From the sequence record PX246730.1: DNA of 64,000 bases. One strand, written 5' to 3'. The notes beneath the pieces were generated by a model that saw only the letters and a program-made list of their open reading frames with translations, ran no database searches and was not told the DNA's origin. Every line of letters begins with the position of its first letter. The stretch's first letter is position 1. Below are positions 463 through 42,367 of the stretch, one piece after another. Source of the stretch: a phage. Made by a program: the position numbers and the translations under genes.

Positions 463-492
463 TTGACAGACTCTACAAAGTTGCTCTAAAGT
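463..492 (+). promoter_or_regulatory. sigma70-like promoter candidate (TTGACA-N18-TAAAGT)
   Basis: TTGACA at 463-468, -10-like hexamer about 487-492, upstream of CDS at 532. Confidence 0.4.
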
Positions 493-531: not shown

Positions 532-1947
532 ATGAGCGAGTTATTCAAACATGCGCACCTTCATGCAGGTCGAACTGAAAATGGTGCTGTAAACCATACT
601 TCATCAATGTCTGCTCTGGTAGACTTCTACAAAGCCGCTGGCTCAAGCCGTAGCAATGTAGAAATCTTACCAGACCTGTTCTACAAAGCTTTGCGTGAGG
701 ATGTTGATGTTGCAGTTCGTATTTTACTGCATATGCGAGATGTACGAGAAGGTATGGGTGAGCGTAAAGCCTTCAGAACTGTTTTGCTTCAAGCGATTGA
801 AGACAAAGTTTTAGAGCCTACACAGGTTCTTCGCATTATGGATAAGATTGCAGAGCTTGGTCGTTTTGATGACTTCAAAATCTTCGTAGGTACTCGTTTT
901 GAGACAGATGCCTTTAAGCATTTAGAAGCAGCATTACTAGACCCTGAGACAGCAGGTTTAGCAGCCAAGTGGTTACCACGAGTAAAACCACGACACAAAC
1001 AGTTTGTAAAACGTTTCTGTAAGTTTGCAAACTTAAGCGAGAAAGAGTATCGCACACTGTTATCTGCACTGTCTGATACGGTTGAGCAAAAAATCTCTGC
1101 TAATGAGTTTGGTAAGATTGATTACAGTAAGATTCCTTCTCTTGCTGCTGCACGTTACCAAAAACTCTTTAACCGTAAAGATGGAGAACGCTACAAAGCT
1201 TACATTGAGTCGCTATCAAAAGGTGAAGCTAAGATTAATGCTGGTGCTGTCTACCCATACGATGTGATTAAATCTATCAAGCATGGTAATGCAGATGTTG
1301 CTAATGAGCAGTGGAAAGCACTACCAAACTGGATGGCAGAAGGTGAGAACATCTTGTGTATGACTGATGTCTCAAGCTCAATGTCTTGGGTGAATCTTGG
1401 TTCAATCACGGCTCTTGATATTGGTGTATCTCTTGCCCTGTATGTAGCAGAACGCAATACTGGTTGCTTTAAGAATGAGTTAATGGTTTATTCAACAAAC
1501 CCTCATTTCATTGAACTGAGTGGTGATTTACGAAACCGTCATCGTCAGGTGATGCGACACGTTGAATATGGTTCAACTAACTTACAAGCAGCTTTTGACC
1601 GTATTCTTGAGACAGGTAAAAGAAACAACTTGACTCAGAAAGATATGCCAAGTAAGCTTATCATCTTCTCAGATATGGAATTCAATCAGGTTGATGGAGC
1701 TAATGGTCGTACAAACTTTGAAGCAATTCAGAGTAAGTACAAAAAAGCTGGATATGAGATGCCACAACTGGTATTCTGGTACTTAGCAAACCGTAATGGT
1801 ACTTGCGAAGTGTCTGTTAAGGATAACGGTGTAGCAATGGTATCTGGTTTCTCTCCAGCCACTTTAAAAGCTCTGCTTGGTGGTGAGAAGTTTGACCCAA
1901 CCAGCGTAATGCTCAAAGCAGTAATGATTGACCGTTACATCTGGTAA
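532..1947 (+). CDS. vWA-domain protein (471 aa), possibly TROVE/Ro60-like architecture
   Basis: C-terminal MIDAS-like motif D-V-S-S-S (CMTDVSSSMSW) typical of von Willebrand A domains; about 270 aa helical N-terminal region. Confidence 0.6.
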   Translation: MSELFKHAHLHAGRTENGAVNHTSSMSALVDFYKAAGSSRSNVEILPDLFYKALREDVDVAVRILLHMRDVREGMGERKAFRTVLLQAIEDKVLEPTQVLRIMDKIAELGRFDDFKIFVGTRFETDAFKHLEAALLDPETAGLAAKWLPRVKPRHKQFVKRFCKFANLSEKEYRTLLSALSDTVEQKISANEFGKIDYSKIPSLAAARYQKLFNRKDGERYKAYIESLSKGEAKINAGAVYPYDVIKSIKHGNADVANEQWKALPNWMAEGENILCMTDVSSSMSWVNLGSITALDIGVSLALYVAERNTGCFKNELMVYSTNPHFIELSGDLRNRHRQVMRHVEYGSTNLQAAFDRILETGKRNNLTQKDMPSKLIIFSDMEFNQVDGANGRTNFEAIQSKYKKAGYEMPQLVFWYLANRNGTCEVSVKDNGVAMVSGFSPATLKALLGGEKFDPTSVMLKAVMIDRYIW

Positions 1948-1965: not shown

Positions 1966-1994
1966 TTGACAATGTGTTTGATACCCTTTAATAT
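1966..1994 (+). promoter_or_regulatory. sigma70-like promoter (TTGACA-N17-TAATAT)
   Basis: -35 TTGACA 1966-1971, 17 bp spacer, -10 TAATAT 1989-1994. Confidence 0.55.
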
Positions 1995-2056
1995 GTCCTA
2001 CATAGAAACGAAATGAGAGCTTTTCTAAGATACTGAAAAATATTTTAAAAAAGTTC

Positions 2057-2086
2057 TTGACAACCACTAAAAAATAATGTTAAAGT
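2057..2086 (+). promoter_or_regulatory. sigma70-like promoter candidate preceding tRNA cluster
   Basis: TTGACA 2057-2062, -10-like TAAAGT about 2081-2086, immediately upstream of first tRNA. Confidence 0.4.
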
Positions 2087-2271: not shown

Positions 2272-2285
2272 CCAGTTTTGACAGA

Positions 2286-2352
2286 AGACCAATTGCAGCA
2301 AACTTAATCTTATTCATCTGAAGGTAAATCGGACAAAGAAGAGATTTGGTCT
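2286..2352 (+). repeat. spacer hairpin element copy a (CAGAAGACCAA ... TTGGTCTGG)
   Basis: inverted repeat AGACCAA/TTGGTCT flanking about 55 nt; conserved internal motif cagcaaaCTTAA; first of four paralogous copies. Confidence 0.6.
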
Positions 2353-2365
2353 GGTCATTAAGAAT

Positions 2366-2439: not shown

Positions 2440-2452
2440 CCAAATTTACAGA

Positions 2453-2511
2453 AGACCGTTTACAGCAATACTTATTAAATTTTTAGCGGAAAAAATTGAA
2501 AGATACGGTCT
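2453..2511 (+). repeat. spacer hairpin element copy b (AGACCGT ... ACGGTCT)
   Basis: same conserved 5' motif tttacagaagaccgtttacagcaa and 3' ggtctggtaat as copies a, c, d. Confidence 0.6.
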
Positions 2512-2526
2512 GGTAATACTAAACAT

Positions 2527-2698: not shown

Positions 2699-2764
2699 CA
2701 ATTTTGAGAGGGCTATTTAGCCCCTCCCTTAAAGAGTTCTTACGAGTATTCTTTAAAGGAGCAG

Positions 2765-2833
2765 AAGACCAAATACAGCAAGTTACTTAAAATTTCAAGC
2801 CAATTTAATTTTGAAAAATTTAAAACTTGGTCT
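2765..2833 (+). repeat. spacer hairpin element copy c (AGACCAA ... TTGGTCT)
   Basis: conserved gcagaagaccaaatacagcaagttacttaa and cttggtctgg. Confidence 0.6.
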
Positions 2834-2852
2834 GGCTCAACAAATTTACAGA

Positions 2853-2978
2853 AGACCGTTTACAGCAAAACTTAAACAATCTATTTCTCTGGTAAAGAAA
2901 AGGCGAAGGTTCGATTCCTTCACTCGGCAGATGTCGAGTTGGTGTAATGGTAGCACTTAAGATGATAAACAACGGTCT
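2853..2978 (+). repeat. spacer hairpin element copy d, enclosing tRNA-like pieces
   Basis: inverted repeat AGACCGT (2853-2859) / ACGGTCT (2972-2978) flanks the permuted tRNA-Thr-like segment. Confidence 0.6.
2884..2957 (+). tRNA. tRNA-Thr(GGT)-like, apparently circularly permuted (3' two-thirds upstream of 5' third)
   Basis: 2884-2929: anticodon arm TTTCT-ctGGTaa-AGAAA, T-arm GAAGG-TTCGATT-CCTTC, 3' acceptor ACTCGGC plus discriminator; 2933-2957: 5' acceptor GTCGAGT (pairs 7 of 7 with ACTCGGC incl. one GU) plus complete D-arm GTGT-aatggta-GCAC. Confidence 0.35.
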
Positions 2979-3129
2979 GGTAATTATCTTTGTAGATAAG
3001 TTATTAAGCTTACCTGTGAGTATGCGACCACAAAGGGTGAAAGGGTAAATTCTAGATTTAAACCCAACAAGGCACATCGCTACAGACCTTAAGCAAGTCT
3101 GGGTAGCTTATCTACAAAGATAATTTAAT

Positions 3130-3379: not shown

Positions 3380-3408
3380 TTGACACTGAGATGTGACTAC
3401 TTTATAGT
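3380..3408 (+). promoter_or_regulatory. sigma70-like promoter (TTGACA-N17-TATAGT) inside tRNA cluster
   Basis: -35 TTGACA 3380-3385, -10 TATAGT 3403-3408. Confidence 0.55.
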
Positions 3409-3613: not shown

Positions 3614-3692
3614 CGGGGCGTATCTCATCTGTCTTCTAAACAGACGTTAACCGAGTAAGTGGAGTATGCGGGTTCGAGTCCTGCCGCCTCGA
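3614..3692 (+). tRNA. tRNA-like element with TCT (Arg-type) anticodon loop, atypical D region
   Basis: acceptor CGGGGCG/CGCCTCG, perfect anticodon arm TCTGT-ctTCTaa-ACAGA, T-loop TTCGAGT, CCA encoded; only 7 nt between acceptor and anticodon stem, 22 nt before T-arm. Confidence 0.4.
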
Positions 3693-3838: not shown

Positions 3839-3918
3839 ATGGGACGATGTTAAGACTCTAAGGCATGAGCAACGGCTTCCAACACCGTTTCAAAGGGGTT
3901 CGACTCCTCCGTCCCATG
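3839..3918 (+). tRNA. tRNA, anticodon unresolved (possibly Trp CCA)
   Basis: perfect acceptor ATGGGAC/GTCCCAT, T-loop TTCGACT, CCA encoded; anticodon region ACGG-cttCCAaca-CCGT has a 9-nt loop. Confidence 0.45.
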
Positions 3919-11323: not shown

Positions 11324-12670
11324 ATGAGTTCGAATATCTTCAGACTTGCTGATAGATTATTCAACCAACCTTTACTAGCCACTGAATCATTAGCTCACTC
11401 AGCAGCAACTTATGTGAATAACAGATTGCTGGGTGATGTCCAAGCAGCAGTAAACTTTGATAAACCCAAAGGTGAAGCAAGAAGTCTTTTAAAAGTAAAA
11501 GATGACATTGCTATTATCCCTATTATGGGTGGTTTAACCCATCGCATGACATTCATTGATGCAATGTGTACAGGTGGATTAAGCTCTTATGAGGGTTTAC
11601 GTAGAGGCTTTGACGAAGCTTTAGCAGATGAGTCAATTAAGACTATCGTTCTGCATATTGATTCAGGTGGTGGTGAAGCTTCAGGTTGCTTTGAATTAGC
11701 ACGTCACATTATGGCTTCAAGAGGCCAAAAGAAAATTATTGCTTATGTAGATGAGTTCGCTTGTTCCGCTGCATACGCTCTTGCATCTTCTGCTGAAGAA
11801 ATTATTGCATCACCAGATGCAGATGTTGGTTCTATTGGTGTAATTATGGTTCATCAGGAATTAACTAAGGCATTTGAAAAGAATGGCGTAACAATTAACG
11901 TCATCAAAGCTGGTGAGTTTAAAGGTATGGGTTCACCATTCCAAGCACTTTCAGAAGAAAGCAAAGAAAGACTTCAAAAGAGAATTAATGATACCTACGC
12001 AACCTTTACAGGTTTTGTAGCCGAATCCCGTAATCTCTCTGAAGAAGCTGTAAAGAATACTGAGGCGAATGTTTATTCTGCTCAGGAAGCTCTTGAACTT
12101 GGTTTAATTAACTCAATCATGTCTCAAGATGATTTCTTAAATTACTTACAAGGTTCTGAAGAGGCTCCTGTAAGTTTAAACGTTAACAATTCAGGTGAAG
12201 AAATGACTGAACAAGAAAAGCAAGAACTAGAAGCTTTGCGTCTTCAGGTTGCTCAAATGAAAGCTAAAGAACAGGAAGCTGCTTTGTCAGATTTGACTAA
12301 TAAGATTTCTGCTTCTGCTGAAGCTTTTGGATTTGATGCAAAAGAAGCTGCAACGACTATTTTAGGTGCTGGTCTTGATAACCCTCTGAGTGTTCTGTTT
12401 ATGAATGCTATGGAAGGTGCTAACCAGAAACTTAATGAAACTATCGCGTCCCATGCTTCTGCAATGGAAGAAAAAGAATCAGAAATTACCAAGCTGAAAG
12501 AAACTGCTGGTGCTGTTCTTGAACATTCCAACGCTATGGAAGAAGTGGGTAATGACGGTGAAGCTGATTTGGTTGAAGAAGAAAAAGAACCAGCTAAGAA
12601 TGCTTCCGAAGACACTGCTGAACAACGCAAACTGGCTCTCCAGAATGCTCTAAAATCTCTTATCAAATAA
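11324..12670 (+). CDS. prohead protease (S49/ClpP-fold) fused to scaffold-like coiled-coil C-terminus
   Basis: motifs resembling SppA/ClpP serine peptidases (IPIMGG, HIDSGGGEASG, DEFACSAAYALAS); Glu/Ala/Lys-rich helical C-terminal half. Confidence 0.6.
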   Translation: MSSNIFRLADRLFNQPLLATESLAHSAATYVNNRLLGDVQAAVNFDKPKGEARSLLKVKDDIAIIPIMGGLTHRMTFIDAMCTGGLSSYEGLRRGFDEALADESIKTIVLHIDSGGGEASGCFELARHIMASRGQKKIIAYVDEFACSAAYALASSAEEIIASPDADVGSIGVIMVHQELTKAFEKNGVTINVIKAGEFKGMGSPFQALSEESKERLQKRINDTYATFTGFVAESRNLSEEAVKNTEANVYSAQEALELGLINSIMSQDDFLNYLQGSEEAPVSLNVNNSGEEMTEQEKQELEALRLQVAQMKAKEQEAALSDLTNKISASAEAFGFDAKEAATTILGAGLDNPLSVLFMNAMEGANQKLNETIASHASAMEEKESEITKLKETAGAVLEHSNAMEEVGNDGEADLVEEEKEPAKNASEDTAEQRKLALQNALKSLIK

Positions 12671-27882: not shown

Positions 27883-30240
27883 ATGGCAGATTACAAGTTG
27901 AGTGAATTAAACTCAATTGATACAATTCGTTCAGATGACCTTCTTCATGTCAGGGTTAAAAAGAGACCTGAGATGTTGGGTGATGAAGACCGTCGAATGA
28001 CCTATCAAGACTTCTTAGCATCTTTTAAACTTGAAAGATTTGTTCAGATTGCTGGTAGTACTATGACGGGTGACTTAGGGATTGTTAAGTTACTTTATGG
28101 TGGTAAGGCAGTATTTGACCCTACAGGTTCTTCTGAAATTACTATTGGGGATGTTTTAAAGACTTTTAAACTTAACGCAAGTGGTCTTAAACTAACTATT
28201 GCAGATGCTTCAAGGTCAGCAACTGTTTATCATACTCTGAATAAGCCAAGTCCTAATGAGCTTGGTATGAGAACTAATGAAGAGAATGACGCAAGATATG
28301 CAAGACTTGCTGTAAATAATACCTTCAGGGGCACTCAAACTATTTTATCTGATAATGAAGCACTTATTGTTAAGAATAACACACAGGGTATGCCACTAGG
28401 TATTCGTGGTCGAGATGCAGATGGAGCTAATAGATGGTATTTTGGCAATGATAATAGAGACTCAAATACTCTTGTATTATCGAATGTAAAGACTGGTGTT
28501 TCAATTGGTATTCTTGAAAATTTGGTGTCAGTCAACAGAACTCTTCAAATTGCTGGTCAAGTTCAGCCTTCAAGTTTTGCTAACTTAGATGCTAGATACT
28601 TTACTCAGACGGCAGCTAATCAGAGATTTGCACAGTTAGCTGCTGATAATACTTTCAGAGGCGCGAACACATTTACCCGACTAAGTGTTTTCAAAAAAGA
28701 TGGTGAGGCGATTAGGCTACAGAATAACAATGCTACACAGCCATTGTACATTATGGCGATGGATAGCGAAGGTGCCAAAAGATGGTACGTTGGTAATACT
28801 GATAGTAGTGGTAACGTAGTTCTAGAAAACTACAAAACTGGTGGAAAAATTACTGTAGGGACAAGTGTTAATATCAATAAAACACTAACTGTAACTGGTC
28901 AGGTTCAGCCTTCTGACTGGGCTAACATTGACTCTAGATACATTCCAGCAGCTACTTTGAGTAATCTTGCTAAACTCAGTGACATGAATACCTTTAGGTC
29001 TGCACAAATTATTACACAAAATGGTTCATTGTTGCGACTAAAAAACACTGTTCAGGATAATGAACTGTACTTGTCTGGTCATAATGCTGATAATGTGAGA
29101 AGGTGGTACATCGGGACTGCTGATAGAACACACCCATCTAGATTCATTATCCACAATGATAAAACTGTGACCACTATTTTTATGGAAGATGACTTTTTGC
29201 TAAATAAAACTGTAAGGATTACTGGTCAAGTTCAGCCTTCAGATTGGGCTAACATTGATGCAAGATACTACGGTAAATCAGAAACTGATTCGAAGTATTT
29301 CTGGTCAGCATCCAGAGGTCTGGTAGAAGAGACTGAAGGTGGTGTAGCTTGGAATCAACCTTCAGGAATCTATCTTGAGACAACTGAGACTGGTTGGTCA
29401 AACCGCTTAGTCTTGCACCTGTTTGCTAATACGACAGCATCGACACCATCTGCACAATTAAGGTTTGATTACAGAAATGGTGGAATGTGGTATAGAACAG
29501 CCAGAGATGCAAATGGTTTTGAGATTGAATGGTCTAGGGTTTACACTAGCGCCGACAAACCAACCCCTGCTGAGATTGGTGCATACACTAAAGCAGAAAC
29601 TGACCAGAAGATTGCACAGGCAATTAGTGACTCCACAGACCTTAATAAAATCTATCCAGTAGGTATTGTAACATGGTTTAATAGTAATGTTGACCCTAAT
29701 ACAGCACTACCTGGGTTAACTTGGACGTACCTTAACAATGGTGTTGGTAGGACTATCAGGATTGCAGCAGCAAATGGTTCAGATGTTGCTACAACTGGTG
29801 GTTCAGATTCTGTGACGTTAGCTGTTGGTAACTTACCATCACACACCCATAGTTTCTCTGCAACTACTTCATCTTTTGATTATGGTACGAAGGGAACTAA
29901 CACTACGGGTGGACACACTCACTCTGGTAGTGGTTCTACTAGCACAAATGGTGAGCACACCCACTACATTGAGGCGTGGAACGGTACTGGTAGAGGTGGT
30001 GATAAGATGTCATCATATGCCGTATCATACAGGACGGGTGGGAGTTATACTAATGCAGCAGGGAACCACAGTCATACTTTCTCTTTTGGTACTAGTGGTG
30101 CTGGTGACCATTCCCACTCTGTAGGCATTGGTGCTCACAGCCACACAGTTAGTGGTAACACTGGTGGTACAGGTTCTGGTTCAGCATTTAGTGTTACTAA
30201 CCAGTTCTACAAGTTAATGGCTTGGGTAAGAACTGCTTAA
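27883..30240 (+). CDS. long tail fibre protein with internal repeats and HxH tip
   Basis: 785 aa; three repeats of (I/V)(A/T)GQVQPS(D/S)(W/F)AN(I/L)D(A/S)RY; C-terminal HxH block and terminal WVRTA matching 26664 protein (WQRTA). Confidence 0.6.
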
Positions 30241-30247
30241 TCCCTTG

Positions 30248-30276
30248 TTGACTGATTGTTAAGATGGTGTTAATAT
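30248..30276 (+). promoter_or_regulatory. sigma70-like promoter (TTGACT-N17-TAATAT)
   Basis: -35 30248-30253, -10 30271-30276. Confidence 0.5.
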
Positions 30277-30319
30277 TCTTTATAGGTATTCTCACCATCT
30301 TGGCTGATGAGGTGATTAA

Positions 30320-30514
30320 ATGCCTACAATCCTAGCAATTCTTCTAAAAAATCTAGGTAGCTTCTTCTGGAAACTCATTTTATCCCTTCTAAGTGAATAC
30401 ATGATTGAGAAAGTGTTCTTTAAGCTTGCAAGATACCTTGCGAGTAAAACAGACACACCTATTGATGATGAGTTCGTAGATAACTTAGAAAAAGCTTTTA
30501 AGGGGGAGAAATAA
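30320..30514 (+). CDS. small hydrophobic protein (64 aa; holin-like?)
   Basis: N-terminal hydrophobic segment; position after fibres. Confidence 0.35.
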   Translation: MPTILAILLKNLGSFFWKLILSLLSEYMIEKVFFKLARYLASKTDTPIDDEFVDNLEKAFKGEK

Positions 30515-30886
30515 ATGAAGTGGCTAGAGGAAGCTTTTAAAAATAATATTGGTGCAATTGTAGTTGGTATTTTTAGTGTTATTGGGATGTATACCACGAT
30601 GCAAGTCTCAAGTGGTAAGCAAGAAGTATCTGTCACAACAAAGTTACAGCAGCTAGATAATTATTCCAAAAGTAACTATTCAGCTATTCGTGATTTGCAG
30701 TCTGACATGAGACTGATTCAGCTAGGGATGGAGAACCAGAAAGTTCAGTTAGAGAATGTTAAGGGTGAAAACGCAAAACTTACCAAAACTCTTGATAAAT
30801 TCTCTGACAGTGTGAATAATCTGGCTCAATCAGTATCAGCCCTCCAAGCTATTACTGAGAAGAACACAAAGAATACTGAAAAGTAA
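30515..30886 (+). CDS. membrane-anchored coiled-coil protein (123 aa; spanin-like?)
   Basis: TM segment IGAIVVGIFSVIGMY followed by heptad-rich region. Confidence 0.35.
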   Translation: MKWLEEAFKNNIGAIVVGIFSVIGMYTTMQVSSGKQEVSVTTKLQQLDNYSKSNYSAIRDLQSDMRLIQLGMENQKVQLENVKGENAKLTKTLDKFSDSVNNLAQSVSALQAITEKNTKNTEK

Positions 30887-30893
30887 AGTTTAA

Positions 30894-30925
30894 GGCTCCT
30901 TTTGATGGGAGCCTTTTTTGTTTTT
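30894..30925. terminator. bidirectional intrinsic terminator between convergent gene blocks
   Basis: GGCTCC-ttttgat-GGGAGCC flanked by A/T runs on both strands. Confidence 0.65.
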
Positions 30926-31823
30926 ACTTACCTACTGACAAAGGCGCTTCAATCTTTCCTGCATGTTGGTAGTTGTTAATTCCACCGATAAAATCACTTG
31001 CAGTAAGGTGTTTTAAATCACTTAGAGTGTTAAGCTGCACACCAATCTCAAAAGTAGGTGCATGGAACTCTTCATTATTCATCAGTTCATAAACCTGTTT
31101 CATATGGTTCTGATAAATCTGAGTATCTCCAAAGACACCTATCAAGTACCGTGGAGTGTATCCAGTCATCTTGCAAAGAACTTCCAGAATAAAACCATAA
31201 GATGCAATGTTAAACGGAAGTCCTAAAAAGGTGTCTACAGAACGTTGATACCATTGTAAGTCAACTTCACCTTCGTTAGTGATATAAATCTGAAACAGAA
31301 CATGACAAGGTGCTAAAGCCATTGAGTTAGCTGCAATATCTGCTGCATTCCAAGCATTAACAAGCATGTAACGGTCTGTGATATCACCTTTCATCTTCGT
31401 TACTAAGGTCTCTAACTGGTCTACAACACAACCATTATGACCTTCAAAGTTTCTCCACTGAACCCCGTAGATTCTCCCACCTGCATCCTCTAACCAGTCT
31501 TGTTCAGAAGAATAGTTAGAGCTTAACCAGCGTTTAAAATCATCTGACCAGATAGTCCAGCGTTCCCCATCATTTTCACCCCAAGTGCGATAACGGAGTT
31601 CACCAAGTTTATTCTCGCCATTCATGAACCATAAAGCTTCCCCAATAACTTGCCGTGTAAACACCTGTTTAGATGTTAAGAGTGGGAAACCAGTTCGCAT
31701 ATCAAAACGAAACTGTGGTGGAGCAAATGCAGAGATAACATCTCCAGTTCGTGTAGTACGCAGTTCACCAACGGATAAAACATGGTTCAGGATATTTTTG
31801 TAACTCAAATCAGCTTGTGACAT
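30924..31823 (-). CDS. thyA: thymidylate synthase
   Basis: motifs LAPCH, QRSVD, GLPFNIASY. Confidence 0.85.
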   Translation of the reverse strand: MSQADLSYKNILNHVLSVGELRTTRTGDVISAFAPPQFRFDMRTGFPLLTSKQVFTRQVIGEALWFMNGENKLGELRYRTWGENDGERWTIWSDDFKRWLSSNYSSEQDWLEDAGGRIYGVQWRNFEGHNGCVVDQLETLVTKMKGDITDRYMLVNAWNAADIAANSMALAPCHVLFQIYITNEGEVDLQWYQRSVDTFLGLPFNIASYGFILEVLCKMTGYTPRYLIGVFGDTQIYQNHMKQVYELMNNEEFHAPTFEIGVQLNTLSDLKHLTASDFIGGINNYQHAGKIEAPLSVGK

Positions 31824-31824
31824 A

Positions 31825-32370
31825 TCAAAAGTGTCCTTTTACTTGTGGAACATAAATTTCAAAGGTTGCTTTACCATCATCCGATGGCCTTGACTGTACC
31901 TTTGCAAATACACGGCTATCATACAGCTTCTCAAAGAAGTTTTCAAAAGGTAAATACACAGTGGCCTCTTCAGTAACTTTATGGAAAACTGTATGGAAAA
32001 CTACACCAGCATACGGTAAAGCACTGACAAGAACACCTGCACCACCAATTACAAAGACATCTTCATCAATAGAGCTATCAAGATACTTCAAAAATGCTCC
32101 AAATGACTCTTTGCTGGCCTTAGCATACATTACATCATCTTTGTCAAAGTCTATACCCAAATATGGAACAGAGTTCGTTAAGACGAGGTTTGTGCGTTCT
32201 GGTAAAGGTTTACTACCCAGAGTCTTAAAAGTTTCATTACCCATGACTACTAAGTTGTCTTTAGTGAGTCTCTTAAACTCTTGCATATCCTGTTTATGTC
32301 GAGGCCACGGCATACCAGTTGGAGTACCAAACTCCCCATTTTCACCACTTGCAAAGATTAATTTAATCAT
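31825..32370 (-). CDS. folA: dihydrofolate reductase
   Basis: N-terminal IFA..NG.FG...MPW motif, about 180 aa, adjacent to thyA. Confidence 0.8.
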   Translation of the reverse strand: MIKLIFASGENGEFGTPTGMPWPRHKQDMQEFKRLTKDNLVVMGNETFKTLGSKPLPERTNLVLTNSVPYLGIDFDKDDVMYAKASKESFGAFLKYLDSSIDEDVFVIGGAGVLVSALPYAGVVFHTVFHKVTEEATVYLPFENFFEKLYDSRVFAKVQSRPSDDGKATFEIYVPQVKGHF

Positions 32371-32627
32371 TTTGTAAACCCTTTCTTAATGAACCAGTTG
32401 ATAACATTCTTCACAGCTTTATTGCTATGGTAGATTAAGTGCGGTGTAGGTTGGTATAAACCATAAGCCCAGAAAGCAATGATTTCATTACATCCTGTAC
32501 ACCTTGTACTCTCTTCAGCAATATGACCGTTGACTATTTCACTTACCTCGCCTTGTAAGTCTGTACACCCACAATGTGGGCATCGGATAGGTGTTCCATC
32601 AGACTCATAGCAGTGTTCAATTTTCAT
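32367..32627 (-). CDS. zinc-ribbon protein (86 aa)
   Basis: CPHCGC ... CTGC cysteine pairs. Confidence 0.45.
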   Translation of the reverse strand: MKIEHCYESDGTPIRCPHCGCTDLQGEVSEIVNGHIAEESTRCTGCNEIIAFWAYGLYQPTPHLIYHSNKAVKNVINWFIKKGFTK

Positions 32628-33143
32628 CTATTTAACCTCAAAAACTGGCTCAAGAACCAATATAAAGTCTACACAGTCATCTTCTTCATCCAGAATACCA
32701 TCAAAGTTCTTAGGAACGAAGTCGAAGAGGCTCATCACAAAGCAGTCAGAAGTGACCTTGATAGTTCCTCCCATGTTCTCTACAGTTAACACTGTACGAC
32801 TTTCTTTTACCTCCCTCAGAAGATTACCCACAAAGTCATCTAAGAAGTACTTCATTAGTGACTTAAAACCTTTAGGATAATCTGTACCAGAGTATGTTTC
32901 AATCTGAGGCACAAGCTTAACATTTATACTAGTCTTTGTTAAGAACGTGTTAGAGAACATACTATCAGGTAACTTACAAACACTCTTTCCAGTACCTTCA
33001 TGTTCAATCTCAACAAAACCAGCTTCGTCGCCACATGTAACTATTTTAAAAGATGCTTCATTCTCATACTGTGAAGCCATAAACTTTTTAAGCATCTCTT
33101 TAAGGAAATCTGCATGAGCATCTTGTAAGTAGATATCAATCAT
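32628..33143 (-). CDS. hypothetical protein (171 aa)
   Basis: ORF track. Confidence 0.45.
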   Translation of the reverse strand: MIDIYLQDAHADFLKEMLKKFMASQYENEASFKIVTCGDEAGFVEIEHEGTGKSVCKLPDSMFSNTFLTKTSINVKLVPQIETYSGTDYPKGFKSLMKYFLDDFVGNLLREVKESRTVLTVENMGGTIKVTSDCFVMSLFDFVPKNFDGILDEEDDCVDFILVLEPVFEVK

Positions 33144-33156
33144 AGTTAATCACCTA

Positions 33157-33516
33157 TTATGGGAACAAACACTTAATGTCATCGTTTTTGAAAACGAAAC
33201 TTGTGTAGTTATGACCATCAACATCCAACCAAACAGCCTGAACATCTACACCATCAAGATTCTGGTAAAGCTCTTTGATGAAGTGGTCTTTCACAATCTG
33301 GCTACTAGTGGTTTCCAGCTTGATGTTTGAGATTGCTGAACCTACAGCCATATAGCCCATGACACGTTTCTTCTCAGTGTGCTTAATCTTACCATCTTTG
33401 TAAGCCATAATGAGATTGGAGAGAACCTTCACACCATAATACTTTTCAAGGTGAGTTGGTACGCCATAAAAGCCTAATGCGAAGTTTTCAGAGTGGATAA
33501 TGTTTTCACGTTTCAT
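33157..33516 (-). CDS. hypothetical protein (119 aa)
   Basis: ORF track. Confidence 0.45.
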   Translation of the reverse strand: MKRENIIHSENFALGFYGVPTHLEKYYGVKVLSNLIMAYKDGKIKHTEKKRVMGYMAVGSAISNIKLETTSSQIVKDHFIKELYQNLDGVDVQAVWLDVDGHNYTSFVFKNDDIKCLFP

Positions 33517-33517
33517 A

Positions 33518-33817
33518 TTAATCTGCCAACCTTAAATTGAAATTAACACCAAATTTTTCACACACTTCCAACATATACTCAAGAGAGACATTACCAGTGA
33601 GGTGGATTATGTTGGATACACGAGCCTGAGAGATACCACAAATTTTAGCAACTTGCTCTTGAGAAAGACCTCTGGATTTAATCTCTCTCTTAAAACGATG
33701 TGCAACGAAATCTCTCATTTCGTCTACATCCATTGGACAAATATAACTCTCCATTTCAGCCTCTCTGTCAGCCCCCCAATCATCTTGTGGAGCATAAGGG
33801 TCAAAAACCTCATTCAT
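33518..33817 (-). CDS. HTH (XRE/Cro-type) DNA-binding protein
   Basis: helix-turn-helix signature GLSQEQVAKICGISQARVSNI; start trimmed to internal Met. Confidence 0.55.
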   Translation of the reverse strand: MNEVFDPYAPQDDWGADREAEMESYICPMDVDEMRDFVAHRFKREIKSRGLSQEQVAKICGISQARVSNIIHLTGNVSLEYMLEVCEKFGVNFNLRLAD

Positions 33818-34022
33818 CTTTCTTCTTCCGTTTTCGTGAAGTGTCAATCAATGAATCTATGTTTGTAGCCCTAACCTTTTCACGTTCATCATTAAGATAA
33901 TCATCAAGAGTCTTTTCAATCTGTGAATCATCTTGACAGATAACGGTAAAGACTGTAAAGCCATCTGTATCGTCAATTATCTTACCATAACCGCTTCTGG
34001 GATGTAACTTTTTAAGAGCCAT
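33810..34022 (-). CDS. hypothetical protein (70 aa)
   Basis: ORF track. Confidence 0.35.
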   Translation of the reverse strand: MALKKLHPRSGYGKIIDDTDGFTVFTVICQDDSQIEKTLDDYLNDEREKVRATNIDSLIDTSRKRKKKDE

Positions 34023-34023
34023 A

Positions 34024-34407
34024 TTAGATACCTGTACAGCTTCTGTTTTCTAAGAAATACTCAACACCATACATAGCTTTTTGCATCAAATCTTCTTTAA
34101 ACTGAATACGATGATTGAGCATAGTTTGTACATCAATATCGTCATGGTGTTTCTCTTTAATATTTGCAGATTGTAGGAAATACTCTGCAAGAACACGATA
34201 CTGATAGTCAGTTACCTTATCAGTCATCTCTGTCAAAGACTCTTCAGAGATTGGTTTAAGTAACTCACCATTAGATAGAGCAACACCTTTTACAATCTGG
34301 CAAGTGTCTTCTGGGACACCTGATAAGTCCACATTTGGGAGTTCTGTTGCATTGACTGGTAAATTCATTGCCATAACCATTGCAGCAGCTAATAAAATCT
34401 TTTTCAT
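34024..34407 (-). CDS. secreted/periplasmic protein (127 aa)
   Basis: signal peptide-like N-terminus MKKILLAAAMVMAMNLPVNA. Confidence 0.5.
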   Translation of the reverse strand: MKKILLAAAMVMAMNLPVNATELPNVDLSGVPEDTCQIVKGVALSNGELLKPISEESLTEMTDKVTDYQYRVLAEYFLQSANIKEKHHDDIDVQTMLNHRIQFKEDLMQKAMYGVEYFLENRSCTGI

Positions 34408-34499
34408 AATGACCTCAAAGTTATATTAAATTTTGTATTACATTGAGTATAAAATAAGCTATAACACCTGACTTGTCAACAGATTTTATAGCTTATTTA

Positions 34500-34930
34500 G
34501 CAGATTTTTTATAAGGCTACTGCCATCCTTCCATACATTACCTTACCACACCCTACCATACCTAACCAAACTACACCATACCATACCTAACCAAACTACA
34601 CCATACAATACCTTTTTAAAAGACCTTGTTTAAAGGCCTTTTAAAAAGGTAAGTCTCATTTTAATGTAGCTGAGACTAACTACCCATACATTACCTTACC
34701 ATACCAGACCTCACCCTACCTTAACTTACCTTACTCTATCCTACCAAACACCACTTAAAAACCCTCTTAGAAGACTCTTAAGTGATGTAATCGGATTTTT
34801 ATGTAGCTCCGATTAACTACCCATACCAAGCCTAACCTGACCGCACCAAACCTTACAACACCACACCATACCAAACCTCATTAAAAGACCCTCTTAAAGA
34901 CCTTTTAAAAAGGAGCCTCCGAAGAGGCTA
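34500..34930. repeat. long intergenic repeat region, copy 1 (G-free A/C-rich tracts plus hairpins)
   Basis: blocks 34500-34542, 34617-34705, 34752-34787 near-identical to 36049-36091, 36151-36239, 36316-36351. Confidence 0.8.
34901..34930 (-). terminator. intrinsic terminator (minus strand)
   Basis: on minus strand AGCCTC-ttcg-GAGGCT followed by CCTTTTT. Confidence 0.55.
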
Positions 34931-34940
34931 CCTAGTCAAC

Positions 34941-35381
34941 TTAGAAAGGTTTTCTACGTTGCTTGTTAATGTTAGCTTTCATAGCAGCTAAATGGTTTTG
35001 CTGTTCAATCAGTCGTGAACGTTCTTGATGACTAAGTGCCATAGTGTTCACATTCTCAATCGCTTGAGTGGCTTGCTTTAAAGCGCGACCAATCTTACCA
35101 GACATTTTACGTTTTGCAATAGTTGCTTGATGCTTAGGTTCAACCACACGATAACCAACACCCATTGAAGCAACCAGATAAATCTTCTCTTCTTTAAGAA
35201 GCTTCTCAATAAACTTCTCAAGTCGGTTTAGACGTGTAAGCGCATAAGCCTTCATTTCATCTTCGTACTTAACAATGTCGCCTTGATAAGTTGGCTTCAC
35301 AATACCTAAGAAGGTATCCATCTCAGAGTGTGATACAGTGTCACCGTAACTAAACTTTGCTGCTAATGCTTTTGTATTCAT
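34941..35381 (-). CDS. hypothetical protein (146 aa)
   Basis: ORF track; flanked by long direct repeats. Confidence 0.5.
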   Translation of the reverse strand: MNTKALAAKFSYGDTVSHSEMDTFLGIVKPTYQGDIVKYEDEMKAYALTRLNRLEKFIEKLLKEEKIYLVASMGVGYRVVEPKHQATIAKRKMSGKIGRALKQATQAIENVNTMALSHQERSRLIEQQNHLAAMKANINKQRRKPF

Positions 35382-35383
35382 AA

Positions 35384-35989
<606 letters not shown>

Positions 35990-36048
35990 TTAGTTGATTG
36001 TTAAGTTGTTTGTAAAGAACCCTCAACAGAAGACTCTTTAGAAACTTG

Positions 36049-36351
36049 GCAGATTTTTTATAAGGCTACTGCCATCCTTCCATACATTACCAAACAGTAC
36101 CGTGCCACAACACACCATACCCAACCCCACCTAACTCTACCACACCTCATTAAAAGACCTTGTTTAAAGACCTTTTAAAAAGGTAAGTCTCATTTTAATG
36201 TAGCTGAGACTAACTACCCATACATTACCTTACCATACCGTACTTTACCTTACCGTACCGTACTTTACCCTACCGTACCGGACAATACTTAACCCGACCT
36301 CGCCCTACCGGACATCACTTAAAAACCCTTTTAAAAGACTCTTAAGTGATG
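36049..36351. repeat. long intergenic repeat region, copy 2
   Basis: near-identical blocks shared with 34500-34787; contains G-free tract ccgtactttacc repeats. Confidence 0.8.
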
Positions 36352-36416
36352 CTGGTGAGTACCCGTTGGTTTATGCTGCTCAGTATACTCACCAAATTTT
36401 CTATGTCAACAACTTT

Positions 36417-37520
36417 TTATTCGTAGTCTCGAATAACTAACCCAACAGGGAACTGTAAAGAACCTTTACGAGTCATCTTCTGGAACTGAACCGTTAAAGG
36501 CTTCCCGATAAACTCTTCAGGATGTTCAGCAAGATACTGTTTCTTCTCATGAGTAGTCTTCCATGAGACATCTACAAAGACGTTAGGAAGAGTCTCTACA
36601 ACAAACTTGCCATGACCACGCTTATCAGTCTTTACACCAGTCACTTTAAACTCTTCAGTGTGCATCTTCTTGTGCTTAATCAAGAAGTATGAACGGTGAC
36701 AACACTCATAGAAGGAGTCTTCAGAGATTGAACGGTACATTGCACCTTCAAACTTAGCTTCAACCCACTTATCATGAGCTTCATCGAACTCTTCCCAAGA
36801 ATTTACACGACGAGACTTAACAGGGACAACTTTACAACCATCTCTCAAATCATTCAATGGTGAAGTCTCAATAATATCTCTACGCTCAGGCCACGTTTTA
36901 GTACTGTCACAGATATCATACCAGTAGAACTTAAGTAAGTGTCTGTCAGGATTGTCTTCATTTTTAATCATGGAGACAATATCTTCTAAGTCCCAACCAT
37001 GAGCATAAATCTCTCCATCAAATTCATCAACATCTTTGTGGAGCCTTAACATTGCCATAATGTCGGGTATTAGTTCAGTAGGGATTTTATAAACAGTATT
37101 TTCACGAGAGTATGCTGTGAATACACTACCAATGCTTAAGTGTCTTGAAATTCTACAACGGACACCATCAAGTTTTGGTTGAGCATCAGCAGGGAACTTC
37201 AGATACTTTGCATGACTAACCTTTGCAGCATCATGAGCAAGCTGTACACCTACCTTCTCAGTATTCTGTGCAGACTCTTTTGTGTAAGCGTAACCTTTGC
37301 GGTCAACTTGCTTTTTATACTTAGCAGCAACTTCAAAGAGAGCTTGCTGTTCAGCGTTACGCTCATTCTTTTTACCGATGTTTTTAGGTTCTGCTGTATA
37401 CTCTTCAAACATCATCTTGCCATTTTCTTTACCATAGGTTGTAATAACTTTGTCACCTACAGCAACACACGACCAGACGTTGAAGGAACCATCTTTATTT
37501 TGTTTGTACAGAATTGTCAT
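36417..37520 (-). CDS. ATP-dependent DNA ligase
   Basis: ligase motif I KxDGxR (PKLDGVRC); about 367 aa. Confidence 0.75.
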   Translation of the reverse strand: MTILYKQNKDGSFNVWSCVAVGDKVITTYGKENGKMMFEEYTAEPKNIGKKNERNAEQQALFEVAAKYKKQVDRKGYAYTKESAQNTEKVGVQLAHDAAKVSHAKYLKFPADAQPKLDGVRCRISRHLSIGSVFTAYSRENTVYKIPTELIPDIMAMLRLHKDVDEFDGEIYAHGWDLEDIVSMIKNEDNPDRHLLKFYWYDICDSTKTWPERRDIIETSPLNDLRDGCKVVPVKSRRVNSWEEFDEAHDKWVEAKFEGAMYRSISEDSFYECCHRSYFLIKHKKMHTEEFKVTGVKTDKRGHGKFVVETLPNVFVDVSWKTTHEKKQYLAEHPEEFIGKPLTVQFQKMTRKGSLQFPVGLVIRDYE

Positions 37521-37723
37521 TTTCTCTTACCACCAATTTCTACGTCAATAACTTGAACATCGCCAGCAACATCAAACTTATGAATGATGCTTTCCACAGT
37601 GTAAGTCCAATCCTCAATGCGAACCAACTCACCTTCTCGTGGGACGATTGGATTACGTTGAGCTACCGTTGTAGTGGAGTGAACAACATCATAACGGTAG
37701 ATATAGTTTACTAGGACTTCCAT
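37517..37723 (-). CDS. hypothetical protein (68 aa)
   Basis: ORF track. Confidence 0.4.
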   Translation of the reverse strand: MEVLVNYIYRYDVVHSTTTVAQRNPIVPREGELVRIEDWTYTVESIIHKFDVAGDVQVIDVEIGGKRK

Positions 37724-37732
37724 AGTTTTTCC

Positions 37733-37966
37733 TTAAAAGGGTAAGTCGATATCAATACGTTCACCCTTAAGGACTCCAGTACGGTCTTTTGCAATCTTCC
37801 CTTCAACAATAAGAATGTGTGCAGACCTTAAAGTGTCACTGTTAAAGGCTTTTACGAACTTACTAGGCATCACTACAATGGACATCTCCTGAATCAACTC
37901 TGGAGTATAGCAATTGTCGTGAAGTTGCTGAATAACGTCTGCAAGTGTCATTTTTGATGTCTCCAA
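37733..37966 (-). CDS. hypothetical protein (77 aa)
   Basis: ORF track. Confidence 0.4.
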   Translation of the reverse strand: METSKMTLADVIQQLHDNCYTPELIQEMSIVVMPSKFVKAFNSDTLRSAHILIVEGKIAKDRTGVLKGERIDIDLPF

Positions 37967-38157
37967 TACTCAATGTCAATAAGTTCTTGTGCAATGCTTT
38001 TCAGATTACCTTTCAAGAAAACCTTCTCAGAACCTGAAAGAGATGAATTGTCAATTAACCTGTTCATTCTCTCAAACAACTTCTGTTTACGATTCTTGAT
38101 AGTTTCCTTTGAAGCATCTTTCATCATCGCTGCATGGGTTCTTCCACGGTGGCTCAT
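37948..38157 (-). CDS. hypothetical protein (69 aa)
   Basis: ORF track. Confidence 0.4.
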   Translation of the reverse strand: MSHRGRTHAAMMKDASKETIKNRKQKLFERMNRLIDNSSLSGSEKVFLKGNLKSIAQELIDIEYWRHQK

Positions 38158-38208
38158 AAGCCCTCCTATACAAGATGTAGTATAAGGTACTCTTCCCTGA
38201 GCACCTTG

Positions 38209-38724
38209 TCAACTTAGTTTTGCAAACTCTCCGTGAAGTTTAATAGCAGCTTCACAGTAAGCTTTATGGGCTTCTTCTTCTGTTGTGTATGTCCCTATAT
38301 GTATAGTCTTGCCATTATGGTTAATCTGGGCTTTCCACTTACCAGACTTACTTCTACTTGTACCTTTTAAGTTTTTTGATGTTCTAGGTTGTCTCCTATT
38401 AGACATATTCTGTTCTTTTGTGGCCTCTCTTAGATTGTCCCAAGCGTTATTCAAACCATCTCCATCTTTGTGGTCAATTTGCTTATCAGGCCACTTGCCT
38501 GTCATCCAGAACCAAGCAATTCGGTGATTGCCTGTCCTGTATCCTAAAATCTGTGTGTGCATATACACACCAGACCTTGTGCGCTTAATTGCTCCGGCTT
38601 GGCTTCCAATAACCACCCTACTACTGTGTGGAGGTCTGCCAATCCATGTTAAGACCCCTGTTTCGGGGTCATAATCTAACCAAGATTTTAACTGTTCATG
38701 TGTGAATCCACAATCTCTCATCAA
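38209..38724 (-). CDS. HNH endonuclease with AP2 DNA-binding domain (free-standing homing endonuclease-like)
   Basis: HNH signature IDHKDGDGLNNAWDNLREATKEQN; AP2-like SKSGKWKAQINHNGKTIHIGTYTTEEEAHKAYCEAAIKLHGEFA; 4-nt overlap with polymerase exon 2. Confidence 0.7.
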   Translation of the reverse strand: MMRDCGFTHEQLKSWLDYDPETGVLTWIGRPPHSSRVVIGSQAGAIKRTRSGVYMHTQILGYRTGNHRIAWFWMTGKWPDKQIDHKDGDGLNNAWDNLREATKEQNMSNRRQPRTSKNLKGTSRSKSGKWKAQINHNGKTIHIGTYTTEEEAHKAYCEAAIKLHGEFAKLS

Positions 38725-39285
38725 TGTACCTCATACCACGATTTACCAACCTTTGCTGTACCAGTTACAAGTGTTTCTTTCCTCAAACCTAAGTTTTTTG
38801 AAGCTTGTCCATACATCCAGTCAGCAATTGCTTTCATATCCTGTGTCATACCCTCTGGACATTCCCAACTATTTTCATCGTGATATGCCAGAAGTAACCT
38901 TGCTCCGATAGCTGGTTTTCGAGCATTCAGTTTTGTCAGGCCATCTTCACAGGCTTTTCTTGCTGCTAGGTTGATGGCCTCATTCTGAATCTGGGCTTCC
39001 GAACTCATCAAGAGGTAGTTCAGTAGTTTATGTGGAGATTTGCACCATATCCATGCTCCAGCGACCCTGATATAACCACCTTTAGCAATTGAAGAATTCT
39101 TCCCAAAAACCTCTTCCAGAGCCTTTTTAGACGCCTTAAAATCGGCTTCTAAGCTATCAAGTAACTTCTTAATCTTTGGCAGACGCATATAGTAAGTTTG
39201 TTTAGTCAATGCACCTTCTTCCGTAGATGATGCTTTGATAGTTTTTGCAAACTTCTCATCACCTGCACCAAACAATACATCTGGT
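38721..39285 (-). CDS. DNA polymerase (family A) exon 2
   Basis: FGAGDEK (motif B continuation) and YHDE motif C; frame open upstream only to 39284. Confidence 0.75.
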
Positions 39286-39553
39286 CAATACACTCGCAAG
39301 GTGTACCAGTTCTCTTATGAACTTCTCCGCATTTCTACGGAGTGTCGGACTATATCACGTAGTAGTAATACTACCGTTGCACTTGGGAATGGTCATTAGC
39401 TTACCACCCTACTCTACTCAGTTCATACATTAAGTATGCTTTTCGATAGTCTCTGAACGTTCCTCTTAAGAGGCTTCGCTGCTGATTACCATATCTTTAC
39501 AGACTTAGGCTTCCAGCAATTCACAACGTTTTACATGCGCCACTGACGCATAA
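39286..39553 (-). mobile_element. group I intron in DNA polymerase gene (no internal ORF)
   Basis: on minus strand, in order: P-like AATTGCTGGAAG (about 39510-39521), Q-like AATCAGCAGC (39478-39487), R GTTCAGAGACTA (39447-39459), S GATATAGTCC (39346-39356); 5' exon ends in U, intron ends in G. Confidence 0.7.
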
Positions 39554-41718: not shown

Positions 41719-41944
41719 ACATTACTGCAAAAAATTATAAAAAGCAAGTTGACAATGTACTTGACAAGGTGTTAATCTTTGCGAAGTGGGTTTTTACTTA
41801 AAAGGTTACTTAACAGTTTAACTATACAGATACTTTAAAACTCTTAAAAGATTATTTAATAGCTTTTAAAAGCTTTAAAGTATAACGTATAGAATACGTT
41901 AAGATAAAAGATTAAAACTTAATAGTTACTTAAAAGAGGCTTAC

Positions 41945-42367
41945 ATGCAGAAAATGTTTGTTCACCCAGACATAGCTGACTTTGTTAGAGCTTTGCAGAA
42001 GTTGGAAGAACTTGACATTGCTGCTCAACGGGAATATGCTCACCATCACAGGAGGATGGTTGATATACAACATGAGATAGAGTTGTCTGAAAACTATGAA
42101 GATGACTTAAAATGCTCTGTATTTGAGCATATGAAAGATGTTGCTACAGCGAGACGTAAAGCTAAAGACACAGTTGCTTTACTAGATTCTCTTAAAAAGA
42201 GGTTGCAAAGTGGTACAGACCTGTGTAATCTAGCGTCACTGATTAACGATGTTGAAACTTCTTGGGATAGGCACTATTATCCACGTTCTGAAAAGACACT
42301 TGACTTTTCTTCATCTGAAAACTTAAAATGTTCTAGAAAGAAACTTAACCAACTGAGAGAGAAATAA
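41945..42367 (+). CDS. hypothetical protein (140 aa)
   Basis: ORF track. Confidence 0.45.
   Translation: MQKMFVHPDIADFVRALQKLEELDIAAQREYAHHHRRMVDIQHEIELSENYEDDLKCSVFEHMKDVATARRKAKDTVALLDSLKKRLQSGTDLCNLASLINDVETSWDRHYYPRSEKTLDFSSSENLKCSRKKLNQLREK

Follow-up and report, generated by a model that had tools for sequence, protein, structure and literature searches.

The phage sequence PX246730.1, a stretch of 64,000 nt referred to here in its full length as the window, comes from a Felixounavirus and is ~96% identical in nucleotide sequence, over 7 kb, to numerous records of Felix O1-like phages. It carries, next to a cluster of tRNA genes, an ATG-initiated open reading frame (ORF) of 471 amino acids (532..1947, plus strand), with the start and length given in a preliminary description made from the sequence. 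We consider it probable that the product of this gene is a divergent Ro60-like protein of the DUF2828/DUF7788 type, which most likely forms a ribonucleoprotein with four small RNAs (U1–U4) from the tRNA spacers in the role of Y RNAs and serves in counter-defence against the host nuclease Ppl. The region beside the gene, previously described as unusually structured, was indeed found to contain 24 tRNA genes with unusually long spacers, starting at 2113.

Profile searches against Pfam assigned the protein to DUF7788 (PF25043; 149 bits, E 1.6e-43, cut-off 27.1) and DUF2828 (PF11443; 104.1 bits, E 1e-29, cut-off 29), and PHROG 850, which bears the label 'RNA-binding protein', matched it end to end (E 4e-184). 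The DUF2828/DUF7788 family comprises 8,704 clusters at 50% identity (E ≤ 1e-3). The DxSxS motif noted earlier in the C-terminal vWA domain (D279-V-S281-S-S283) forms, together with T349 and D381, a complete MIDAS (metal-ion-dependent adhesion site), and all five residues (D279, S281, S283, T349, and D381) were invariant in 37 homologues of 41-89% identity. An AlphaFold model obtained from the 37-sequence alignment (predicted local distance difference test 86.3, predicted template modelling score 0.87) was analyzed with DSSP and found to be all-helical over residues ~28-263 and alpha/beta over residues 274-447. This is in agreement with the ~270-residue helical N-terminal region described before. 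Comparison of the model with PDB using Foldseek returned full-length Ro60/Rsr/TROVE structures as all of the top ten matches (E 6e-8 to 1.5e-6, >510 columns, template modelling (TM) score 0.5-0.64), and vWA-only structures came next, with E above 1e-3. The best full-length matches were Ro60, Rsr, and phiRo60; a canonical 'Ro-like' Gordonia phage protein was matched too, and the structural alignment to Ro60 spanned ~390 residues including the helical ring. The TROVE-vWA (Ro60/Rsr-like) architecture proposed in the preliminary description is thus supported by this fold prediction, established here, though not by Pfam TROVE. As modelled, the protein has the Ro60 architecture, i.e., a helical-repeat ring and a vWA domain with a complete MIDAS, and lacks a detectable TROVE sequence signal, a reading drawn from the full-length structural matches taken together with the absent TROVE profile match.

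The profile comparison suggested earlier as a check gave a mixed outcome, as DUF2828 and DUF7788 exceeded their cut-offs while neither Pfam TROVE nor VWA was detected in the protein at E ≤ 1. A phmmer search against PDB returned no match, and in a profile search against PDB the sole vWA-type match was human Ro60 (9nen_A) at an insignificant E of 1.5, the alignment falling on the MIDAS motif. Since there is no Pfam TROVE match and the PDB profile match is insignificant, homology to Ro60 rests on the predicted structure, and both results count against the Ro60-like assignment. A missing TROVE match would agree with a generic vWA adaptor (a MoxR-type cochaperone or virion assembly factor) whose N-terminal likeness to Ro60 is superficial, as would the annotation 'vWFA protein' in some records and the existence of phage vWA cochaperones. 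However, the Ro60 alignment takes in the helical ring and lies far ahead of the vWA-only matches, and no AAA+ partner or structural gene was present among the conserved neighbours, so that an adaptor of this kind appears extremely unlikely.

A search of the tRNA spacers for Y-RNA-like structures, as had been recommended, revealed four units between 2279 and 2983, which lie 332-1036 nt 3' of the gene on the same strand. These spacers hold four copies of CAGAAGACCnnnnACAGCAA (repeat family D12), each with a downstream GGUCUGG partner, and all four units share one predicted fold consisting of a 4-bp outer helix, an AGA/G internal loop, a 7-8-bp helix, and single-stranded UUACAGCAA. The closing helix has the form AG...CUG with an invariant G-C pair and is followed by UUACAGCAA. 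The outer helix varies among the copies yet stays paired (UGAC/GUCA, UUAC/GUAA, GAGC/GCUC), and the inner helix, AGACCnn/nnGGUCU, shows AA/UU vs GU/AC exchanges; the helix pairs thus co-vary among the paralogous copies. U1–U3 are 70-80 nt long. Bas63, SUSP1, Maleficent, and ESh22 have conserved counterparts of all four units, and related records annotate small hypothetical ORFs, not RNAs, over the corresponding spacers. At the gathering threshold, Rfam detected only tRNAs and one group I intron in the window and 11 loci. Weaker Rfam matches (tmRNA, Plastid-ycf2, MIR473, and similar) were dismissed as chance or as tRNA mirror images. A mechanical ORF at 2811-2960 (+), other small ORFs, and 'hypothetical protein' annotations in relatives overlap U3/U4 and tRNA genes, and these are probably spurious calls on RNA genes.

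The linkage of such units to DUF2828 genes was analyzed in a viral set of 80 fetched loci, encoding relatives 39-99% identical to the 471-aa protein (1.0 Mb scanned). A looser RNA pattern was too noisy (245/132/79), and a strict descriptor was used instead (an AG-helix with a minimum of 6 bp, then 1-4 nt, and C[AC]GCA[AG] ... helix'-CU-G). With this descriptor, the gene strand yielded 114-118 units, compared with 5 for the opposite strand and 4 for shuffles, and for spans of ≤80 nt the ratio of gene strand to opposite strand was 53:0; the bare hexamer was about evenly distributed by strand (879 vs 749). The units are found close to the gene, 72 of 118 within 500 nt, with a median nearest distance of 106 nt. 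More than 20 unit-bearing loci lacked any tRNA gene, and orphan T-arms were confined to the gene strand. Several regularities were not imposed by the descriptor: 93 of 100 units had a G-to-CAGCAA spacing of 8 nt, U occupied position -2 in 94%, and 65% started with AAG. Within the motif, C, G, C, and A were present in 100% of units, which was partly imposed by the search, and A in 94%. The units comprised 58 distinct helix cores, and in a de-replicated alignment, whose members had been chosen for pairing, the 6-bp stem was 99.5% paired, five of the six pairs were changed on both sides, and the outer G-C was kept in 33/33. The pair outside the closing G-C also co-varies, being A...U in most units and U...A in UUGG...CCAG variants.

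A covariance model trained solely on viral units (R2) was applied to an independent set of 80 loci from bacterial and archaeal assemblies, including metagenome-assembled genomes, with 33-42% protein identity (0.63 Mb). It produced 90 matches at E ≤ 1, a rough value owing to shortened calibration of the models, with 89 on the gene strand and one on the opposite strand. These matches were spread over about 51 of the 80 loci, mostly ≤450 nt upstream of the gene. In the window, R2 detected U1–U3 only. When the loci recovered by R2 and by R1, a second covariance model described below, were added to those found with the descriptor, roughly 60 of 81 viral loci carried a unit. None of the protein-coding neighbours of the DUF2828 gene recurred in more than 16 of 76 loci, and therefore the RNA unit is the most conserved neighbour of the gene. 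The gene-RNA linkage and the conservation of RNA motif and structure are established by these comparisons, and the partner non-coding RNA envisaged in the preliminary description gains comparative-genomic support from the linkage of the spacer units to genes of this family in phages that are distantly related.

Two other RNA elements were observed in the viral loci. One phage lineage without standard units (L032, L033, L037, L041, L051, and L075) has a recurrent element of the form ...AACAUGUAGAAAGC...GAAGAAUA..., with a T-arm and a strong terminator-like hairpin, ~5 kb downstream of the gene. A related phage contig (L024) carries a group I intron at 11696-11922 (Rfam 71.5 bits), at a distance of a few kb from its DUF2828 gene.

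U4 differs from the short units in enclosing a predicted tRNA-like domain in permuted order, in which a tetraloop caps the 7-bp acceptor stem. ARAGORN called no tRNA in U4 in its native order. When the parts were re-joined in the usual tRNA order, tRNA-Thr(GGU) was called, with 0 of 200 shuffles being called; rotation with an intron allowed failed to recognise U4, and the call was obtained with the break at position 26/27. A partial Rfam tRNA match is also present within U4 (2872-2922, 26.8 bits). Similarly, none of 17 long units was called by ARAGORN in native order, and 10 of them were called only after rotation at the acceptor loop, where the permissive positions spanned 6-17 nt. The shared closing stem and motif thus enclose different inserts: nothing in the short units, a T-arm alone (L043b and L054b), or a tRNA-like domain in permuted order (U4 plus some 15 other units). 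In two loci, the body framed by the closing stem and CAGCAA is tRNA-like and in normal order, namely L043 5734-5834 (L043a; Rfam tRNA 52.9 bits) and L054 5757-5855 (L054a; 41.3 bits). Judging from these two sequences, some 'tRNAs' beside DUF2828 genes may be embedded in stem + CAGCAA RNAs.

The tRNA-derived arms of U4, the position of the units between tRNAs, and the normally ordered bodies of L043a and L054a could also be taken to mean that the spacer repeats are tRNA-cluster housekeeping elements, such as processing sites, terminators, or decayed tRNA genes, and not partner RNAs. This is very unlikely, as stem + CAGCAA units adjoin DUF2828 genes in loci devoid of tRNA genes, and the 8-nt spacing, the invariant G-C, and the motif are kept while the helix sequence varies. 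Moreover, no unit matched in a terminator scan.

With respect to physiological role, the 471-aa gene is established as the orthologue of gp130 (bas63_0130) of phage Bas63 (JohannRWettstein), with 95.6% nucleotide identity and the same synteny. Deletion of g130 resulted in small plaques on a host carrying Ppl, a defect restored by complementation, and gp130 by itself, supplied from a plasmid or inserted in T7, restored plaquing on Ppl hosts (10.1101/2024.10.10.617714). Ppl is a host single-stranded DNA 3'-5' exonuclease activated by nucleoside triphosphate depletion and 3'-OH ends (2026 review). A counter-defence role is hence supported by the gp130 phenotype in the literature. Both the Ro60 likeness and the role against Ppl have been published before, so that the present reading is not new as far as the protein is concerned. 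The authors of the PhageMaP study speculated that some tRNA genes near gp130 might be Y RNAs (10.1101/2024.10.10.617714); the candidate RNAs found here are unannotated spacer units and not the annotated tRNAs, and they do not figure in that preprint. No follow-up literature on gp130 or gp130-linked RNAs was found.

The rescue of T7 on Ppl hosts by gp130 alone raises the alternative that the protein acts alone as an anti-defence factor, by capping DNA 3' ends or by inhibiting Ppl via its MIDAS face, the spacer RNAs being unrelated neighbours. The action of Ppl on single-stranded DNA 3'-OH ends and the invariance of the MIDAS site are in line with it. On the other hand, the units follow the gene on its own strand across proteins only 33-48% identical, in two collections and in tRNA-less loci, and are its most conserved neighbour. 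T7-infected E. coli may provide other RNAs, and anti-Ppl activity may not be the sole function of the protein. We regard an action of the protein alone as unlikely, though deserving serious consideration. Because gp130 alone works in T7, the RNAs are likelier to be regulators or adaptors than obligatory cofactors for the anti-Ppl activity.

For the ribonucleoprotein of the DUF2828/DUF7788 Ro60-like protein with phage-encoded U1–U4, we infer RNA binding, RNA processing, and an action against Ppl along the following lines. U1–U4 would probably be co-transcribed with the tRNA cluster and then excised from the precursor. The terminal helix with its invariant closing G-C (5'-AAG...CUG-3') and the single-stranded UUACAGCAA would probably constitute the protein-binding module, which fits the reported main contact of Ro60 with the Y RNA stem's 5' strand (PMC4201824). 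The variable module, which may consist of nothing, of a T-arm, or of the permuted tRNA-like domain seen in U4, could by analogy recruit or decoy tRNA-binding or RNA-processing factors, and the RNAs would serve as regulators or adaptors. In Ro60, single-stranded 3' ends pass through the cavity at the centre of the ring. On this ground the gp130-type ring would most likely cap or sequester single-stranded 3' ends, or else bind Ppl via its MIDAS face; PDB 2i91, a complex of Ro60 with a misfolded-RNA fragment, was among the Foldseek matches of the model.

Several observations, in addition to the profile results given above, weigh against a ribonucleoprotein of this kind. The sufficiency of gp130 against Ppl implies that this activity needs no Felix-type RNAs in cis. 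About a quarter to a third of the loci had no detectable unit, and the single-sequence folding z-scores of U1–U4 were modest (-0.9 to -2.1). The strict-pattern scan of the whole window gave six further scattered long-span matches, probably due to chance. The selection for pairing behind the stem statistics and the roughness of the covariance-model E-values reduce the weight of these measures. U4 did not match Rfam YrlA (RF02553) at E ≤ 10, and no literature on expression or protein binding of the U1–U4 RNAs was found.

The coordinates of the gene, its domains, the RNA units, and the promoter candidates are collected in Table 1.

Table 1. Features of the Ro60-like gene and the adjoining RNA units (positions in the window)
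Feature	Position	Strand	Basis
DUF2828+DUF7788 protein ORF, 471 aa, ATG start	532..1947	+	Ro60-like predicted fold; Bas63 gp130 orthologue
N-terminal helical-repeat (TROVE-like ring) region, residues ~1-268	532..1335	+	DSSP; full-length Ro60/Rsr alignments; Pfam DUF2828
C-terminal vWA domain (Pfam DUF7788), residues ~269-471	1336..1944	+	E 1.6e-43; vWA-only structural matches
MIDAS DxSxS motif, D279-V-S281-S-S283	1366..1380	+	Invariant in alignment of 37 homologues
MIDAS residue T349	1576..1578	+	Invariant in alignment of 37 homologues
MIDAS residue D381	1672..1674	+	Invariant in alignment of 37 homologues
Sigma-70-like promoter candidate, TTGACA-18-TAAAGT	463..492	+	10/12 consensus matches, upstream of the ORF
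Two promoter-like sites, 1966-1994 and 2057-2086	1966..2086	+	Consensus matches only; precede the tRNA/RNA cluster
RNA unit U1 (short); outer helix UGAC/GUCA, AGA/G internal loop, helix 2286-2292/2346-2352, motif UUGCAGCAA 2293-2301	2279..2357	+	Model R2 38.7 bits (in the R2 training set)
RNA unit U2 (short); helix 2453-2459/2505-2511, motif UUUACAGCAA 2459-2468	2446..2516	+	RF01414 20.7 bits; model R1 18.9 bits, E 0.4
RNA unit U3 (short); helix 2766-2772/2827-2833, motif AUACAGCAA 2773-2781	2759..2838	+	RF01414 15.3 bits; model R2 45.3 bits
RNA unit U4 (long); closing helix 2853-2860/2971-2978, motif 2861-2868, permuted tRNA-like domain	2846..2983	+	Folding; ARAGORN on un-permuted construct
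U4 connector, CUUAA with UUAAG	2871..2875 with 2957..2961	+	Folding
U4 anticodon-like arm	2884..2900	+	Folding
U4 T-arm	2905..2921	+	Folding
U4 capped 7-bp acceptor hairpin	2922..2939	+	Folding
U4 D-arm	2942..2956	+	Folding

The promoter attributed to the gene in the preliminary description has a candidate sequence in TTGACA-18-TAAAGT and is only plausible, because promoter-like sites were not enriched in the gene region (16 found vs 15.0 expected in shuffles). Repeats resembling the UP-like/-35 portion of this upstream site were found at 1946-1972 and 2037-2063 (repeat family D18). Promoter-like modules, composed of A/T-rich TTTTAAAA, TTGACA, and a -10 element, recur at 455-492, 1946-1994, 2037-2086, and 3380-3408, i.e., before the ORF, before the tRNA cluster, and within it. 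This recurrence in the sequence suggests that the protein gene and the RNA cluster are transcribed separately. The ORF located upstream of the gene (79-450, 123 aa) belongs to PHROG 4114 and has a basic, Gly/Lys/Arg-rich N-terminus. It directly precedes the Ro60-like gene in Felixounavirus, Suspvirus, and Mooglevirus, and its product might be a partner of the Ro60-like protein. Two tRNA-like elements of the window were missed by ARAGORN. One, at 3614-3692, scored 33.4 bits with Rfam tRNA and is annotated as tRNA-Arg in a relative; the other, at 3840-3912, shows GGGACG/CGUCCC acceptor-like pairing, a T-arm GGGGUUCGACUCCUCC, and a CCA end around an odd body. The sign of the GC skew flips over ~30000-42000 of the window, which fits a minus-strand gene block.

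Proteins with the same fold (TM up to 0.88) are encoded by Pithovirus, Marseillevirus, Mimiviridae, CroV, and Bodo saltans virus, and DUF2828/DUF7788 has also been mentioned for mimivirus-like and potato proteins, the reach into plants resting on annotation. The giant-virus and plant proteins share the Pfam families and the fold of the phage protein but are longer, up to ~770 aa.

The short phage units also resemble the Class I RNAs of dictyostelids. These RNAs of ~60 nt start with AAG and end with CUGU, have an invariant 5' G pairing with the C of CUG, and contain a 6-bp stem kept in structure only, with an 11-nt motif directly after its 5' strand; they were reported to be absent from all other organisms examined (Kjellin et al., 2021, PMC7919456). 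The short units are likewise ~60 nt with AAG...CUG(U) ends, an invariant closing G-C (37/38 Class I RNAs, 33/33 phage units), and a ~6-bp stem conserved in structure only. In both groups (C)UUACAGCAA directly follows the 5' strand, and the remainder is variable, sometimes with a T-arm-like hairpin. The 11-nt Class I motif CCUUACAGCAA, with U3, C6, C9, A10, and A11 invariant, has a counterpart in the phage units. Matches of the short units to Rfam RF01414 (consensus GaUcuC-CUUACAGCAA...GagAuC-UG) were weak, at 15.3-24.3 bits, below the gathering score of 41.5. The phage units deviate by one nucleotide from most Class I RNAs both in where the conserved U lies and in the spacing, which is 8 nt vs mostly 9 nt. 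Furthermore, Class I RNAs have a Dictyostelium upstream sequence element (DUSE) promoter ~60 nt upstream, found in Dictyostelia only, whereas the phage units, whose hosts belong to another kingdom, lack DUSE and are placed in a sigma-70-type or tRNA operon context. Three Class I RNAs (asu_can_20, ppa_can_99, and DpuR-22; PMC7919456 supplement) were observed to have T-arm-like hairpins with GGUUCGAUCC-type loops, and one T-arm-bearing Class I RNA continues into a long closed hairpin, mirroring the phage long units.

R1, a covariance model of 38 Class I RNAs from six dictyostelid species (PMC7919456 supplement) that includes no phage sequence, gave 24 matches at E ≤ 1 in the viral loci, every one of which flanks the gene and shares its strand, with a gene-to-opposite strand ratio of 44:4 at E ≤ 10. 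Ten matches at E ≤ 1 were obtained in the independent set, again all on the gene strand (26:2 at E ≤ 10), which brings the total over both sets to 34; the top score of a phage unit was 28.8 bits. Conversely, the phage-derived descriptor recognised 31 of 49 Class I RNAs, and none of 980 shuffles was picked up. Pull-down of DdR-21, a Class I RNA, recovered Rnp1A/CIBP, GuaB, NdkC, and DDB_G0281243, the last of which is functionally uncharacterised. The known direct binder of Class I RNAs is Rnp1A/CIBP, a protein with an RRM domain, and these RNAs have no known DUF2828 link. No literature on DDB_G0281243 and no follow-up on protein partners of Class I RNAs was found, and a motif search of the dictyostelid proteome sequences in the supplement, as far as these were covered, returned only an unrelated Ras/vWA protein. 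It is possible, although we put it forward with considerable reserve, that the phage RNAs and the Class I RNAs form one ancient class with a DUF2828/DUF7788 Ro60-like protein as its conserved partner, i.e., that they are the 'Y RNAs' of a second Ro60-like lineage in phages, protist giant viruses, and eukaryotes. If this were true, Class I RNAs would act as ribonucleoproteins with a DUF2828 protein, possibly DDB_G0281243.

What appears to be new, being undescribed in the literature searched, is the RNA class, the tie between this class and DUF2828 genes throughout the family, U4 with its permuted tRNA-like domain, and the correspondence with Class I RNAs. These findings provide testable partner RNAs for a very large phage family of 'domain of unknown function' proteins with one validated anti-defence member. 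They would also extend the principle of the Ro60-Y RNA complex, in which a binding stem is joined to an exchangeable effector module, here including permuted tRNA mimics, to a second lineage unrecognisable by sequence. A link is thereby offered to the dictyostelid Class I RNAs, whose function has been an open question since 2004; if it holds, the mechanism of these RNAs and of the eukaryotic and giant-virus DUF2828 proteins becomes directly testable.

Among known systems, the combination of Ro60/Rsr with YrlA (RF02553) is similar in its ring + vWA/MIDAS protein and its adjacent small RNAs on the same strand. Bacterial Y RNAs are encoded within 4 kb of the Ro60 gene on the same strand (PMC4201824), and U1–U4 likewise lie within ~4 kb of their gene on the same strand, as do the units family-wide. 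YrlA is defined by a 5'/3' stem that encloses a T-arm, a closed acceptor, and a D-arm in this order (Chen et al., 2014, PMC4201824), and the phage long units likewise have a terminal stem plus a tRNA-like module arranged as V-T-closed acceptor-D. In the long units of L076, YrlA was the best Rfam match over the full model in a narrow scan, with scores of 28.7 and 25.2 bits where the gathering score is 69. YrlA, however, carries a GNCGAAN0-1G motif near its 5' end, where the phage units have UUACAGCAA instead, and GGCGAAGG occurs in U4 only at the start of the T-arm and not at the position of the YrlA 5' motif. Most phage units are short and have no tRNA-like module, unlike YrlA. Hence, the phage long units resemble YrlA in design but are not members of RF02553. 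The Thermus phage phiLo provides a phage counterpart, as its phiRo60 binds two adjacent phage Y-like RNAs (Yrl1/Yrl2) and the host polynucleotide phosphorylase (PMC12135203). In comparison with the 471-aa protein, phiRo60 (PDB 9KOP/9L5Y) is a recognised TROVE protein of ~15% sequence identity, and its RNAs contain a CGAA bulge motif.

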